Part shown: positions 3,086 through 33,483 of the stretch, in pieces
How positions within the stretch are numbered: the stretch's first letter is position 1
Layout: each line of letters starts with the position of its first letter
Assembly: GCF_018977255.1 (NCBI RefSeq)
Contig: NW_024704742.1
Span: 69,566,001 to 69,630,000, forward strand
Source: Callorhinchus milii
Taxonomy: Eukaryota
Direction of reading: 5' to 3'
DNA: 64,000 nucleotides
Translations under genes and position numbers: made by a program
The notes under the pieces: model-generated
Databases searched by the model: none
Told to the model about the DNA's origin: nothing
What the model saw: the letters and a program-made list of their open reading frames with translations, nothing else

Positions 3086-3420
3086 TGTTGATAATATATT
3101 TAATATATTCTTGTTGCTATTTTTCAGAGCAGCACAGTCTAAAGCAGTAACTAAAACAGTCAATGAGCTTGTGATGAAATATAAAGTGCTTGATGGCAGG
3201 GACTGTATCTGATCAGAATATCTGATTTCAATTTCCACTTATGCCATTTTAAGGTTGTGGATAAAATCTATCATCTGAAATTGAATGGTAAGGACATGGC
3301 ATTGTCCTCTGATTTCTGATAAACTGGGCCAATAGAAAAGTGCGGAAATGTTTGCAAAAAAATTGCAGAATGCTTAAGAAATCTTCTGGGAACTTGCAGG
3401 GAAATCTTTTAAGTTTTCAT

Positions 3421-4455
3421 AGATTCATAGAATATTACGACACAGAAGGAGGCCATTCGGCCCATCGAGTCTGTGCCGGCTCTTTGACAGAGCAAGTCAC
3501 TTTCACTAACTCCAATCACCAGCTTTCTCCCCATAACTCTGCAAACCCGTCTTTCCCAGATACCCATCCAGTTCTCTCTTAAAAGCATTACCCTTTCAGG
3601 CAGATCATTCCAAATTCGAACTCGCTGAGTAAAAAAATTTCTTCTAACCTCCCCTCTGCTTCTTTTGGTAGATACCTTAAGACTGTGACCCCGGTCACAG
3701 ACACACCTACCAGCGGAAACAGCTTTTCCCTATCTAGCCTGTCGAAACCTATCATGATCTTGAAGACCTCTATCAGGTCCCCGGGTAACCTTCTCTGCTC
3801 TAATGGGAAAAGTCCTAACTTCTCCAGTCTGTCCTCATAGTTAAGGTTCCCCATTCCTGGTATCATTCTCGTGAATCTCCTCTGTACCCTTTCCAGTGCC
3901 TTAATGTCCTTCCTGAAGTAAGGTGCCCAGAACTGGACGCAGGACTCCAGCTGAGGCCTAACCAGTGTTTTGTATAGATTAATCATACCCTCCCTACTCT
4001 TATACTCTATGCCCCTACTAATAGAGCTCAGTACACCAAATGCCTTTTTTACTGCCTTATCTACCTGCCCCGCTACCTTTAATGATTTACTTACTTGAAC
4101 ACCCAGATCTCCTGGAGTCCTGTAGCTCAGTGGTTAGAGCACTCGCTTTGCAAGTGAGAGACCTGAGTTCAATTCCAGGCAGAGGGCGAAACCTTGGGCA
4201 AGTTTCCTTACTCCACACAGAGCCTAATAATAATCCCTCCAAAACAAAAAACAATAATAAATTGGTCATTTTCAATCTACGACTGTTTGTGGGACATTGC
4301 TGTGCGCAATTGGCTGCCGCATTCGCCCACACATATACAGTCAATTCACTTTACAGTATGTTCTGTGAAGCGCTTTGGGACATCCTCCCGACATGAAAAG
4401 CGCTATATCAAATGCAAGGATTATTATTATTATCTCTCTGTATGGTCACACCCCT
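3421..4455 (-). mobile_element. CR1 LINE 3' fragment nested in the hAT element, itself split by a SINE (4114-4433)
   Basis: ORF 3588-3986 LYKTLVRPQLESCVQFWAPY...LERVQRRFTRMIPG is the CR1 RT C-terminus. 3' UTR GAATGGCCTCCTTCTGTG followed by TTCTATGA-type tail. Confidence 0.9.
4114..4433 (+). mobile_element. Young tRNA-derived SINE, family A short subfamily (A')
   Basis: tRNA-like head with A box (TAGCTCAGTGG) and B box (GTTCAATTCC), Deu-like 3' body, L2-like stem-loop tail, (ATT)n. Near-identical to 45326-45649 and 52451-52778. Confidence 0.9.
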
Positions 4456-4484
4456 GCGGAAAAATTGCAGAAGTTTAGTTGGTG

Positions 4485-4765
4485 CTATTGAGAGACGCAT
4501 TTTGCTGTTAACCTACATGCTTCATGCTCAGGAATAAGCTCTTTCAAGTATTTATTACAAAGCTGTGATGGTGTTGGAATAGTCCCTCGCTGTTTCGTGC
4601 ACTTGCATAGAAACTCTTGGAAGGCAGGACCTTTTTCAAGCGGTATGTCTGGTCTAGTCAAACACTGCACAAAGTCCAATATGAATTCTTTCCTCTCCAT
4701 AGATGATGCAGTGGCTCTAGAGAAGCAGGTTGTTAGAGCAAGTTGTCTCTGAGGTCCAAATCCAC
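4485..4765 (-). pseudogene. CGGBP1-like / hAT transposase remnant, downstream exon (helical DNA-binding/dimerisation region)
   Basis: Acceptor TTTTTTCCTTTCTAG|GT at 4766/4765. Open frame GFGPQRQLALTTCFSRATASSMERKEFILDFVQCLTRPDIPLEKGPAFQEFLCKCTKQRGTIPTPSQLCNKYLKELIPEHE resembles the CGGBP1 C-terminal half (QDFVKMCLEANIPLEK...GGSIPKSDQLRRAYL). Ends at TAG 4487-4485. Confidence 0.85.
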
Positions 4766-4854
4766 CTAGAAAGGAAAAAATAAAAATTAATCTTCATGAT
4801 GCATTTGTCGTTAGAAATGTTCTATCTATTTGTTTTTATTTGCTGTGGTTGCTT

Positions 4855-5143
4855 ATGTGCCCACCACTGGCAGGTGAGCCTTCAGACACTTTGCCCCCCC
4901 CTGGACCTCCATCCCGCAGTCCCTCCGCCTCACCAGCCTCCTTCAAGACCCGCCTCCTTCAAGACCCATCTCAAAACCCATTTCCTCTTCGACCGTGCCT
5001 TTGATCATCCTCCATCCCTCCCGATCTCCGGCCTCCCTGATCCCAACCCCCAGCTCGAGTCCGAAACACTGATTGTCCAGCGCCTTGGGACATCCTCCCG
5101 ACGTGAAAAGCGCAATACAAATGTAATTTTGTTGCTGTTGTTT
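4855..5143 (+). mobile_element. L2 LINE 3' fragment within the intron of the CGGBP-like remnant
   Basis: SFKTHLKTH-LFDRAF ORF2 end; tail GCGCCTTGGGACATCCTCCCGACGTGAAAAGCGC followed by (GTT)n. Confidence 0.85.
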
Positions 5144-5274
5144 TAAAATTCAATCAAAAAAGGAGAGAGATTAATTTATGCAATTATACAAATTAAGATT
5201 TCCTTTCAAAATTAGAGTGAAAGCACATAATTATACATTTTCATTTCATAGTATTTATATCAAAAGCAGTTTAC

Positions 5275-5480
5275 CTTTATTTTTTTCTTGATTGACGCTT
5301 CCTCGAGTTAACAATGTTTCTGAGATTTCATGTGCTCAGCAACGGTGCACTTGCGAACACAATCAATTGTGTGACAGCAAACGGGGCAAAACAACTGCCC
5401 CCCTTCTATATGAAGGTCATCTGGAGAGAGTACAATTCTACCTGTACGACAGACGGAAAATGAGAGGTTGCGGCTCCTTG
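5275..5480 (-). pseudogene. CGGBP1-like / hAT transposase remnant, zf-BED exon (disrupted)
   Basis: Translation RIVLSPDDLHIEGGQLFCPVCCHTIDCVRKCTVAEHMKSQKH resembles the CGGBP1 zinc finger as I recall it (LHEDGGKLFCTSC...HVRKSAISDHLKSKTH). In-frame TAA/frameshift just after KH. Splice donor AAG|GTAAAC at 5275/5274. The 5' limit is approximate. Confidence 0.85.
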
Positions 5481-6037
5481 GCTTCCTCACGGGATTTGCA
5501 AAACCGTTTGGATATTTTTGTATTGTACAACTTAAAAAATCCACTATCCCTGATTAAAACTGTAGGTATATATTTCCTAAAAACCTACTTATGTTTAAAA
5601 TACTAAATATTTTAATTTGAATAGTTACCGAGAATAGCTCTTACCAAGAATTCTCCGCGATAGTGTGTGACACGGCTGCTTTTCCTGTCGAGGTTTACTC
5701 ACCAGTGAAGTCGATTTCCTGCACATGCCGCTCCTGTCATCCCCAAATTCACTGTGCCACTCATGCGCGATCAGAACCTCTCCGGCCATATTAGTGGCGT
5801 CGAGCAAACAGTGTGAAAGGCCTGGGGCCAAGCGCACTGTGTGTAAAGGTTAGTACCTGAGGGACTGTTTGTAGCGGGCGAGGGCTGTTGTAGCTGAATG
5901 TGCGGAGAAAGTGTGCTCACACATTTCCATTGGCCCAGCTGATAACTAGAGATTAGCATAGAATATGTATTCTCTGGTCAAGGCCTTGATGTAGAGGTGA
6001 CTGCCTGTCAGGAGTCTGTCCCATCCAAATCCAATCA

Positions 6038-6393
6038 TGCAGTCTTGTAGCATACCGGCTACAGCACTCACCCCGCAAGCGAGAGGGTGCAGGTTTGATT
6101 CCCGGGCAGGGCAAAACCTTCGGCAAGTTTCCTTACTCCGCACACTTACCGATCCCGGTTGTTAGTCGATTGGTAGATTGGGGGGAAAAATCCCATGTTT
6201 AAAAAAAACATTCAAAAAAATTGCCACTCAATACACGACTGTTTGTGGGACACCACTGGGCGCAATTGACTGCTGCTTTTGCCCACAAAATACAGTCAAT
6301 TCACTCTGCAGTATATTTTGTGAAGCTCTTTGAGATGTCGCAACAATGTGATAAAGTGCTAAATCAAATGCAAGGATTATTATATATTATTAT
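6038..6393 (+). mobile_element. SINE family A
   Basis: tRNA head, GGCAAGTTTCCTTACTCC, Deu 3' body, (ATT)n. Confidence 0.85.
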
Positions 6394-31388: not shown

Positions 31389-32900
31389 ACAACAACAACA
31401 AGTTTCCATTTATCGAGCGCCTTTCACGTCGGGAGGACGTCCCAAGGCGCTGTACAGTTGGGTCAGGACCTGAGCAGGGGGAAAATGGTCAGGGTGAGGG
31501 GAGGGAGGGAGGGAGGGAGGGGGGAAATGGTCAAGGTGAGGGGAGGGAGGGAAGGAGCGAGGGGGGGTAGAGAGTCGAGAGAGGAGCTGAAGGCACGGTC
31601 AAAGAGAAAGGTCTTGAGACCGGCCTTCAAGGAGGAAAGGGAGGAGGCGGCGAAGGCACTGGGGGATGGAGTTCCAGAGCCTCGGGGCTGAGAGGCTGAA
31701 GGCCGGGCCTCCGATGGTAGGGGGGTTGGGGCGGGGGATGTGGAGCAGACAGGAGCCAGAGGAACGGAGGGTACGGGCAGGTAAGTAGGGGGATAGTAAG
31801 TCAGAGAGGTAGGAGGGAGCAAGGCCGTGAATGGCCTTGTAGGTGAGGATGAGGATCTTGAATTCGATCCTCTGGGGGATGGGGAGCCAGTGGAGGCGAG
31901 CGAGGGTGGGAGTGATGTGGTCCCGAAGCCTGGTGCGGGACAGTACATGAGCTGCAGAGCTCTGAATGACCTGCAGTGTGGAGGGAGGGGCCGGGAAGGC
32001 CGGCGAGGAGAGAGTTCCCATAGTCCAGCCTTGAGGTGATAAAGGCGTGGACCAGAGTTTCAGCAGCGTGAGGGGTGAGGTAGTGCCGTAGTCTGGCGAT
32101 GTTCCGGAGGTGATGGAAGGCGGTGCCAGTTGTGGCGCGGATATGAGGGAGAAAGGACAGCTCAGGGTCGAACAGAACACCGAGGTTCCTGATGGCTTTG
32201 AGAGGTGGAGAGTGCAGCCTTGGATGCTGATGCTGTCAGCGCCTGAGGTGCGGAGGCGCTGACGTGAGCTAATCAGGAGGGCCTCAGTTTTGCGCACGTT
32301 GAGCTGAAGAAAGTTGTCTCTCGTCCAGGACTCGATGTCGGACAGGCAGCTGTCAGGACATCGGGGGTCGTGGAGTTGAGGGTAGAGGAGGAAAGGTAGA
32401 GTTGGGTGTCATCCGCATACATGTGGAAGTTAACCCCATGTCTGCGGATGATGTCACCAAGGGGGAGCATATAGAGGGTGAAGAGGAGGGGACCGAGGAC
32501 AGAGCCCTGAGGGACACCGCACGCGACAGTGCGGGGGCTGGAGGAAAAGCCGTTTGTGGAAACAAAGTGAAGACGTTGGGAGAGGTACGACCTAAACCAC
32601 TCAAGGACAGTGCCTTGAAGGTTGAGGTGGGAGGACAAGCGGTGGAGGAGGATAGCGTGGTCGACCGTATTGAATGCTGCCGACAGGTCGAGGAGGCGGA
32701 GGGAGCCCTGGTCGCAGATGGTCAGGATGTCATTGGTGACCTTGACCAGGGCAGTTTCTGTGCTATGGGCAGCACGGAAACCCAACTGAAGGGGTTTGAA
32801 TAATGAATGGGTGGAGAGGAAAGAGCGCAGCTGGGAGGCGACAACTCTTTCAAGGACTTTGGACAGGAAGGGGAGGTTGGAGATGGGCCGGTAGCTTGAT
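31389..32900 (-). mobile_element. Young L2 LINE, 5'-truncated (RT to 3' end), inserted in a CR1 3' UTR
   Basis: [15 protein letters not shown]...LLDLSAAF...[10 protein letters not shown]...YADDTQLY. CpG-rich, so probably young. (GTT)n tail. AGAAACA flanks both ends (31382-31388, 32901-32907). Confidence 0.95.
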
Positions 32901-33483
32901 AGAAACAGGCCATTCGGCTCAACTGATCTATGCCGGTGTTTATGTTCCACATGAGTCTCCTCCTACCCTTCCTCAACTAAGGCTATCAGCATAACCTTCT
33001 CTTTCTTTCTCCCTCATGTACTTATCTAGCTTCCCATTAAATGCATCTATGCTATTTGCCTCAACAACTCCATGTGGTAGCAAGTTCCACATCCCCACCA
33101 CTCTCTGGGTAAAGAAGTTTCTTTTGACTTTACTATTTGATTTATTGGTGACTATTCTATATTTATGGCCCCTGGTTTTGGTCTCCCCCACAAGGGAAAC
33201 ATCTTCTCTATGTCTACTGTATCAAAACCTTTCATAATTTTAAAGCTCTCTATTAGGTCACCCCTTACCCTTCTTTTTTCAAGAGAAAAGAGTCTAAGCT
33301 TGTTCAGCCTTTCCTGATAGATATAACCTTTCAGTTCCGGTATCATCCTTGTAAATCTCCTTTGCACCTTCTCCAGTGCCTCTATATCCTTTCTATAATA
33401 TGGGAACCAGAACTGTGCACAGTACTCCAAGCGTGGTCTAACCAAGGTTCGATATAAGTTTAGCATAATTTCCCTGCTTTTCA
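32901..33483 (-). mobile_element. CR1 LINE 3' fragment (its terminal tail lies at ~31352-31388)
   Basis: LYRTLVRPRLEYCAQFW...; FFTQRVVGMWNLLP...FNGKLDKYM; 3' UTR GAATGGCCTGTTTCT. Confidence 0.92.

Follow-up and report, generated by a model that had tools for sequence, protein, structure and literature searches.

Several groups of mobile elements and genes are known that resemble the locus described here. Pairs of the Ac/Ds type in the hAT superfamily have short terminal inverted repeats (TIRs) and 8-bp target-site duplications (TSDs) with a preference for nTnnnnAn, and they include varied internal-deletion derivatives that keep both ends and are moved in trans, as well as coding-free short forms sharing the termini. 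Most hAT TIRs start with CAG or TAG. With regard to CGGBP proteins, the Panther/InterPro model of CGGBP1 matches 29 of 824 hATs, mainly hAT-19, while Pfam fails to detect the finger and DNA-binding domains in CGGBP1; most non-amniote CGGBPs are shorter than 200 amino acids (aa) and/or intron-bearing, and versions encoded by hATs bind to motifs within the subterminal regions of the very elements that encode them (Yellan, Yang & Hughes, 2021; PMC8097297). Frith (2022; PMC9004415) reports hAT19 fossils from amniote ancestors. In the Drosophila P family, the truncated DNA-binding product of the KP element represses transposition (PMC7776569). Here we analysed a stretch of 64,000 nucleotides of Callorhinchus milii (contig NW_024704742.1, positions 69,566,001 to 69,630,000 of the forward strand), called the window below, and found at its positions 3324-5938 a hAT-type element with three nested repeats and a two-exon gene on the minus strand. 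In all likelihood it is a dead, internally deleted, non-autonomous copy of the ordinary Ds/KP-like kind. A literature search found no paper specific to this hAT family in Callorhinchus milii.

The family is similar to Ac/Ds-type pairs in all the features mentioned above, namely the short TIRs, the 8-bp TSDs with nTnnnnAn preference, the varied internal-deletion derivatives with both ends kept and the coding-free short forms. On the other hand, two of its deletion forms were amplified with the entire DNA-binding front end in place, and its TIR starts with CTGGG, unlike most hATs. Like CGGBP and hAT-19-type transposases, it encodes a bipartite zinc finger plus helical DNA-binding region, and its short product is, like CGGBP, unrecognised by Pfam, below 200 aa, intron-bearing and found under a CGGBP cluster name in the Atlas; the short gene here is decayed and lies in a mobile, multi-copy, TIR-bounded element, whereas short forms are treated as host genes in that paper (PMC8097297). 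The likeness to KP (PMC7776569) is an amplified internal-deletion element whose open reading frame (ORF) covers the N-terminal DNA-binding part only, while KP belongs to the P/THAP superfamily and not to hAT, repression was shown for KP and is no more than possible for the present product, and all present copies are dead. The Hermes transposase (PDB 2bw3, 4d1q, 6dww, 8edg) has the same domain order of finger, DNA-binding region, RNase H and C-terminal part, and its C-terminal region is matched at E 5e-4 by P0023, a full-length relative introduced below. Nevertheless, Hermes is very distant from the present family, and PDB sequence and fold searches gave neither a sequence match nor a fold match between Hermes and the N-terminal part.

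The two TIRs agree at 18 of 21 positions (3324-3344 against the reverse complement of 5918-5938, read by eye; the repeat finder lists the same pair), and the flanking TSD agrees at 7 of 8 (ctgataaa against ctgataac; CTGATAAA). When the nested repeats are removed, about 1.3 kb is left. These figures had been given by a first-pass annotation made from the letters of the window, and all of them stood. Siblings at other genomic loci, where both of their ends were found, are bounded by the same 19-nt terminus, CTGGGCCAATAGAAAAGTG, and the sibling 8-bp TSDs are all different (8/8 in L004, L011, L020, L048 and L053; 7/8 in L007, L025, L050 and L059), most of them fitting nTnnnnAn. Thus, the TIRs and TSD of the window element are not due to chance. 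The parts of the element, apart from its nested repeats, are as follows.

3316..3323, no strand: left TSD, ctgataaa, 7/8 against 5939-5946; sibling 8-bp TSDs differ
3324..3344, plus strand: TIR at the 3' end of the element in gene orientation; its 19-nt core recurs at sibling ends
3345..3404, minus strand: 3' subterminal sequence, aligning to L011, L007, L012 and long-copy positions 2626-2661
4479..4518, minus strand: 3' subterminal segment abutting exon 2 via the internal deletion (junction between 4519 and 4518); long-copy 2528-2567
4485..4765, minus strand: exon 2, with linker, helical DNA-binding region, deletion junction, 10 out-of-frame codons and TAG at 4485-4487
4766..5274, minus strand: GT-AG intron, about 229 nt in siblings; donor and acceptor conserved
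5275..5515, minus strand: coding part of exon 1, with the former start now ATA (5513-5515), the C-x2-C...H-x5-H zinc finger and TAA at 5308-5310
5516..5917, minus strand: 5' untranslated and subterminal region, 70-81% against siblings; 81 first-look candidates for 5760-5938
5918..5938, minus strand: TIR at the 5' end of the element in gene orientation, pairing with 3324-3344
5939..5946, no strand: right TSD, ctgataac

In the assembly searched (991 Mb; all counts of candidates and matches are lower bounds), exon 2 gave 44 genomic matches at 83-91% and 69 first-look candidates. Similarly, there were 66 first-look candidates for exon 1, 191 for the 3' end (query 3324-3404) and 81 for the 5' end, 40 of each being scored. 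The window element is thus a single decayed member of an old family for which there are at least 66-191 candidates. The long copies of this family (L051, 2662 bp; L053, 2911; L059, 2867; L056, 2579) show what has been lost. The exon-2 frame of L051 has no stop past ...EHEA and continues as ...VYLFLDETTDSSG... / FLKKHVEYTDVYLFLDETTDSSG... in a 224-aa ORF, with further coding pieces in other frames as far as ...RYIWLPVSTADVKRLF.... This ORF matched DUF659 at 4.4e-5, below the Pfam cut-off, and the decayed L051 pieces on their own had no hAT C-terminal match in Pfam. A profile of nine natural sibling translations (A1), searched against 1.84 billion proteins, retrieved 338 proteins at E<=1e-3, including the full-length P0023 (594 aa, named from sea urchin) and P0019 (589 aa), which both pass the Pfam cut-offs for Dimer_Tnp_hAT and DUF659. 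In tblastn, P0023 aligned with L051 over residues 97-559 (8e-43) and with L062 over residues 538-587 (8e-10), meaning that the reading frames of the 2.6-2.9 kb siblings align to residues 97-587 and still encode the RNase-H-like and hAT C-terminal parts. Because the long siblings align to the full-length hAT transposases P0023 and P0019, the family is a hAT family, and the autonomous-type partner that the first-pass annotation had proposed to look for is found in these siblings.

By the same search, the window matches only residues 4-68 and 97-162 of P0023, which agrees with the earlier claim of a non-autonomous hAT without catalytic domain. Exon 1 overlaps a minus-strand ORF (5308-5553, carrying ...GGQLFCPVCCHTIDCVRKCTVAEHMKSQKH) with a C-x2-C-x15-H-x5-H finger and aligns to P0023 residues 4-68 (5484-5290, 35%, 1.3e-8) and P0019 residues 24-59 (47%, 3e-7). 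Exon 2 lies in another ORF (4485-4793, carrying ...ERKEFILDFVQCLTRPDIPLEKGPAFQEFLCKCTKQRGTIPTPSQLCNKYLKELIPEHEA...), reading DFV...DIPLEK...GTIP...QL...YL before the stop that had been noted at 4485 and is indeed TAG at 4485-4487; it aligns to P0023 residues 97-162 (4694-4500, 39%, 2.5e-5) and P0019 residues 76-150 (37%, 8e-8). Of a coding sequence for ~590 transposase residues, the window copy thus retains the portion for the first ~160, with a bipartite finger and Hermes-type DNA-binding region as in CGGBPs and without the catalytic domain. With two transposase exons retained, it is not a coding-free miniature inverted-repeat transposable element.

The truncation is shared by siblings and is not a one-off event, which had been left by the first-pass annotation as the decisive question. 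When copies were placed on the long form in gene orientation, the window covered 1-1065, 2528-2567 and 2626-2661 (window 4519-4860 being long-copy 723-1065). In subfamily A (L002, L004, L010, L064, L065, L066), sequence up to 1097/1098 is joined to that from 2520/2528 onwards (L066 at 2520); L020 reaches 1098 on the map and was assigned to A by junction search and junction alignment. The aligned junction reads ...GAAGACACGGATGT/AGGTTAGCAGCAAAATG..., and the long form has ATGT on both sides. The window shares the right side of this junction (TGTAGGTTA...) and has lost 31 further bases to its left. A 111-nt query over the A junction had full-length matches at 7 places including its own, and an eighth at 74%, so the junction is common to the window and about 8 other copies. 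In subfamily B (L011, L012, L015, L045, L049, L068-L071), 1116/1127 is joined to 2387, and a 116-nt query over this junction had full matches at 9 places including its own; two B copies on C16 are a recent duplicate pair with a Kimura two-parameter distance (K2P) of 0.017. The TSDs of A-type copies differ (L004 ATAATGAG, L020 GTCATGGC, besides that of the window), and those of B-type copies differ too, so the deleted forms themselves transposed. The A frame ends with ...FLKKHVEDTDVG and a stop, the B frame with ...VYLFLND and a stop, both just before or within the first catalytic motif. Both subfamilies are therefore amplified internal deletions that keep only the N-terminal DNA-binding part, as KP does.

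Other deletions were seen once each: 1074 joined to 2502 in L007, 1098 to 2461 in L008, 1260 to 2219 in L005, and a form without the finger and DNA-binding exons in L025. The search with the 3' end yielded 29 sibling loci. By our classification of their maps, three are B-type, two or three are long and one is another deletion form; about 20 match the long form at the ends only, or nowhere (L030). The last group are internally repetitive and interrelated elements of 0.7-1.4 kb which share the termini and code for nothing (e.g., L048, L022, L050), and such coding-free short forms are the most frequent class among the 29 loci.

The GT-AG intron proposed at 4766-5274 proved to be well founded. The window has the donor AAG/gtaaac at 5275/5274 and the acceptor ...tttctag/GTGGAT at 4766/4765, and most of the 37 aligned copies keep the donor AAG/GTAAAA and the acceptor TTTCTAG/GTGGATC. 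Contigs came from two runs of one study that are only guessed to be RNA, and were placed on the window at 85% likeness. They join 4766 to 5281, close to the 5275/4765 junction expected earlier (record 9 of X6, 406 nt, is continuous over the joint, and X7 has the same joint), and likewise 4767 to 5307 with 26 diverged letters in between. At the listed positions of the gene part, the contigs disagree with the window copy in all or almost all of their depth, so they are apparently derived from siblings. An intronless DNA copy is an unlikely source of them, because the gap between exons 1 and 2 is about 70 to about 1370 bp in the 23 sibling copies with both exons listed (compared by hand), none near zero and none intronless. 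Taken together, the intron is real, and splicing of the family transcripts is likely.

Copies differ in the length of the A-rich run that precedes the donor. By our own count in the aligned copies, 17 nt is commonest; this form gives a phase-1 donor and the in-frame reading ...KNEG/GSGPQRQLALT.... Since the run of the window has 16 nt, its exons are mutually out of frame. An alternative acceptor, cag/AGA at 4749/4748, would keep the window ORFs in frame and was rejected: the contigs join at 4766/4767, GSGPQRQLALT... after the 4766/4765 acceptor aligns to the salmonid relative P0003 (...SGPARTQTLASCL...), and the commonest 17-nt run is in frame with the 4766/4765 acceptor. On the same three grounds the acceptor chosen by the first-pass annotation is retained. 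In addition, record 21 of X7 (depth 203.9) joins 4611-4777 to 5691, near a GTGAGT at 5702-5697, and skips the finger exon, with undetermined letters between the joined parts; this could be an alternative splice or a deleted sibling. L013/L055 (G000:C5:45.10 Mb) is a long copy without most of the intron, with an exon gap of about 70 bp against about 230 and one edge of the loss close to the acceptor.

All copies examined are decayed. We aligned 37 copies (9 A, 9 B, 19 long or other) and counted stops and frameshifting indels against majority columns, from the ATG to just before the A-rich run and from the acceptor to ...EHEA. Majority columns can mis-call homopolymer frameshifts, so single events are soft, though the overall picture is not. 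No copy (0/37) was clean in both exon stretches, and the idea that siblings might keep an open frame is not borne out. The ATG is kept in most copies (ACAAAAATGTCCAAACG...) and has become ATA in the window. The disruption just after the second His that had been noticed in the window copy is the TAA at 5308-5310; besides it and the lost start codon, exon 1 has one frameshift, whereas exon 2 has neither stop nor frameshift up to the junction. The 16-nt A-run and the extra 31-bp deletion at the internal junction are further lesions. Mean pairwise K2P was 0.160 within A, 0.142 within B, 0.151 among long copies and 0.149-0.156 between classes, and in the FastTree tree, which has a star-like shape, A, B and long copies are intermingled. 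This pattern fits one old burst followed by neutral decay.

Several public models named 'Uncharacterized protein' from one chimaera species correspond to such copies, with 100% identity over the aligned parts (P0001 to L051, P0004 to the B-type L068, P0156 to L019), and the model P0006 lies on L011 (B-type, perfect TSD) with 98.5% in exon 1. Further fragments of the family, a 5'-end piece and two catalytic-region pieces, lie at G000:C1:69564814-69565450, about 0.55-1.2 kb before window base 1 and about 4 kb from the window copy. At G000:C12:8.04-8.91 Mb, L005, L065, L054, L058/L042 and others are clustered within about 0.9 Mb, which could reflect local hopping, segmental duplication or repair chimaeras.

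The kinship of the element with CGGBP is suggested by an automatic Atlas cluster name, by motifs and by the work of Yellan et al. (2021; PMC8097297). P0002, a 147-aa public model ending ...HVEDTDVG, is the product of an A-type form. In the Atlas it lies nearest to a cluster called 'CGG triplet repeat-binding protein 1-like' (0.96, 192/256 features), which may be the query's own cluster, and a zf-BED/DBD_Tnp_Hermes cluster ranks sixth (0.92). For window exon 2, the Atlas search gave only unnamed clusters at 0.91-0.92, with hAT-related families below 0.9 (recognition 1881, below the guide of 2300). The alignment of the clade (37 sequences) shows the pattern Y.DGG.LFC..C....D..R..T...H..S..H ... 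F..D.V.....ANIPLEK...P..R.FL.K....GG..P....LR..YLP, which we take to be that of human CGGBP1. zf-BED (PF02892) matched neither window exon 1 at E<=1 nor P0002, P0027 and P0023 at E<=0.1. The structure of P0002 predicted with the clade alignment (mean predicted local distance difference test score, pLDDT, 90.3) divides into two modules at residues ~1-72 and 76-147. The first is a finger-like beta-beta-alpha module that by fold comes closest to other zinc fingers (Z 5-6.3), and the second resembles helix-turn-helix DNA-binding domains including Mos1 and SETMAR (Z 4-5.5, generic). The best Z in VIA-align was 6.3, to generic folds, and Foldseek gave nothing at E<=1e-3, with the ZBED1 BED domain only at E 7.2. 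PDB sequence searches with exon 2 and profile A2 had no meaningful match and no CGGBP1 entry. Protein searches with exon 2, limited to proteins of similar length, and with profile A2 at thresholds of E<=1e-3 and E<=10 retrieved no named CGGBP1, but their word filter limits their reach, so this lack is not evidence against kinship. The cluster members of 20 protein matches carried no CGGBP name, and no repeated subterminal motif, including GCGGA, was found beyond the TIR.

How did the short form arise? The parent would have been an autonomous-type element of 2.6-2.9 kb with 19-21-bp TIRs and 8-bp nTnnnnAn target duplications, in which exon 1 carried the ATG and a BED-like zinc finger and, after a phase-1 intron of about 229 nt, exon 2 encoded the helical DNA-binding region followed by the RNase-H-like catalytic and hAT C-terminal domains. 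Probably within a single old burst, a deletion between the short ATGT repeats (long-copy positions 1099-2527) took away the stretch from just past '...EHEAFLKKHVEDTDV' to about 135 bp from the 3' end, perhaps by slippage at this microhomology or by abortive gap repair. The resulting ~1.2-1.3 kb subfamily A kept both ends and was probably moved in trans by the family transposase to several sites, and a second deletion (1128-2386) gave rise to subfamily B, which probably spread in the same way. A and B could encode no more than a ~175-aa protein of zinc finger plus DNA-binding region, and this is how CGGBP-type proteins and KP-type truncated transposases are built. Once inserted, the window copy lost its start codon and acquired the nonsense codon, the frameshift, the 31-bp junction deletion and three retroelement insertions. 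The CGGBP1-sized, DNA-binding-only ORF is real and was propagated. Its extent follows from where the deletions fell, and we infer that it was a by-product and not a selected gene.

Some observations weigh against this account. The A-type L065 groups with the long L058 (support 0.997), which is hard to reconcile with junction A having arisen only once, unless gap repair produced chimaeras or the deletion recurred. Moreover, the breakpoints of A, B and the single variants L007 and L008 fall into about 60 bp, directly behind the DNA-binding region and ahead of the first catalytic motif, and each form reaches a stop <=2 codons past its junction. Selection for a DNA-binding-only product could also account for this mild coincidence. 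The copies on the deletion map were mostly found with exon 2 and are therefore biased to exon-2-retaining forms. Pfam had no match at E<=1 for either window exon. The coincidence leads to another view, in which A and B spread because their product was a KP-like regulator that competed for element ends or poisoned transposase multimers, so that the CGGBP-like ORF was functional during the burst and the mobile cassettes became raw material for CGGBP-type domestication. The two separately derived and separately amplified forms do retain the ATG together with the finger, the intron and the DNA-binding region, and their frames end before the DETTD motif, the presumed-RNA contigs suggest that family transcripts are spliced, and the short, intron-bearing CGGBPs and the binding of hAT-encoded versions to their own subterminal motifs (PMC8097297) point the same way. 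However, the ORF is kept in 0/37 copies, the star-like tree offers no subfamily history by which selection could be measured, and the copy sample leans towards exon-2-retaining forms. Furthermore, since the coding-free short elements with the same termini are the commonest among the 29 loci (about 20), the elements could spread without a protein. The subterminal regions showed no repeated motif containing CGG, although CpG decay could mask one. We therefore consider a regulatory role of this kind unlikely.

That the locus might instead be a domesticated CGGBP-type host gene which happens to retain transposon ends is highly improbable. The 100% identity of P0001, P0004 and P0156 (aligned parts) to translations of L051, L068 and L019 and the top Atlas cluster of P0002 would seem to favour such a gene, but these public models sit on transposon copies with lesions. 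The window copy itself has no start codon, carries a nonsense codon and frameshifts, is broken by three repeats and is one of many dispersed copies bearing TIRs and TSDs, and the contigs differ from it at the listed positions and are apparently sibling-derived. Domestication of the window locus has left no sign, and the domestication-like intermediate suggested by the first-pass annotation is not supported by a multi-copy, TIR- and TSD-bounded family in neutral decay on a star-like tree. It is barely credible that a full-length copy simply lost its middle at random after insertion. The 31-bp junction deletion and the nested insertions are indeed private to the window copy, but the right breakpoint and junction sequence recur in L002, L004, L010, L020, L064, L065 and L066 at other loci, whose flanks and TSDs differ, which speaks against duplications of the window locus. 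Thus, the reading as an ordinary dead deletion derivative is preferred.

Taken alone, this is routine repeat annotation. It has modest value as a worked example of how one internal deletion of a hAT can yield a CGGBP1-sized, intron-bearing, DNA-binding-only ORF that spreads as a mobile unit. The public models on such copies call for caution in counting 'independent domestications' from short gene models, and A and B compared with the long form are concrete elements on which the idea of KP-like regulators for hATs could be tested. A further thought, which we regard as rather doubtful, is that CGGBP-type genes may start as mobile, pre-truncated cassettes and not mainly by decay of a full transposase in place: promoter, ATG, finger, intron, DNA-binding region and early stop would be made by a boundary deletion and then copied by the parent transposase. 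If so, A and B would be fossils of such cassettes, and many short 'CGGBP genes' of fishes and coelacanth would be such elements or their descendants, possibly after a KP-like regulator phase.

Outside the window, an apparently intact young hAT of the same clade and of a different family was seen at L072:1614-4996 (G000:C429) and L073 (G000:C400). The element has 3383-3417 bp and perfect 21-bp TIRs (CAGTCCCTCCAGAAAAACGCG), and its flanking 6-bp direct repeats differ (AGTAAC and ATAAAC). The two copies are 98.9% identical in unrelated flanks, and both have open stretches of 121, 261-263 and 277 aa, the third of which, at 26.3 bits, exceeds the Pfam cut-off of 21.4 for Dimer_Tnp_hAT. Its DNA-binding region has the sequence ...INIPLSKTDHPALRKFL...NGGAIP...QL..MYL, where 'its' refers to the element. 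Being only 34-35% identical to the fossil family, this element is not its partner.

The repeats nested in the window element are the following.

3417..4111, minus strand: nested repeat with a 181-aa ORF (3588-4133); missing in siblings at this place, with copies in unrelated loci
4113..4433, plus strand: nested tRNA-headed short interspersed nuclear element (SINE), with an Rfam tRNA match at 4120-4182 and 90-94% copies at other loci
4861..5140, plus strand: SINE-like insertion within the intron, private to the window copy; every sibling joins 4860 to 5141

The first two form a foreign block at ~3405-4440 that siblings do not have at this place. The ORF-bearing repeat has further copies at unrelated loci (e.g., L051 9121-9635 at 71%); its 181-aa ORF had no Pfam match, and from the appearance of this ORF we take the repeat to be a 3' fragment of a long interspersed nuclear element (LINE). 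The tRNA match of the SINE scored 40.2 bits against a gathering score of 29, and the tail of the intron insertion repeats 4364-4407 at 89%. Directly right of the TSD, 5947-6160 resembles the body of the 4113-4433 tRNA-SINE in the opposite orientation (...ggcaagtttccttactcc..., read by eye). Eight other long open stretches of the window had no Pfam match, and a 229-aa open stretch at 32276-32962 on the minus strand matched RVT_1 at 1e-28, indicating a LINE or other retroelement elsewhere in the window.

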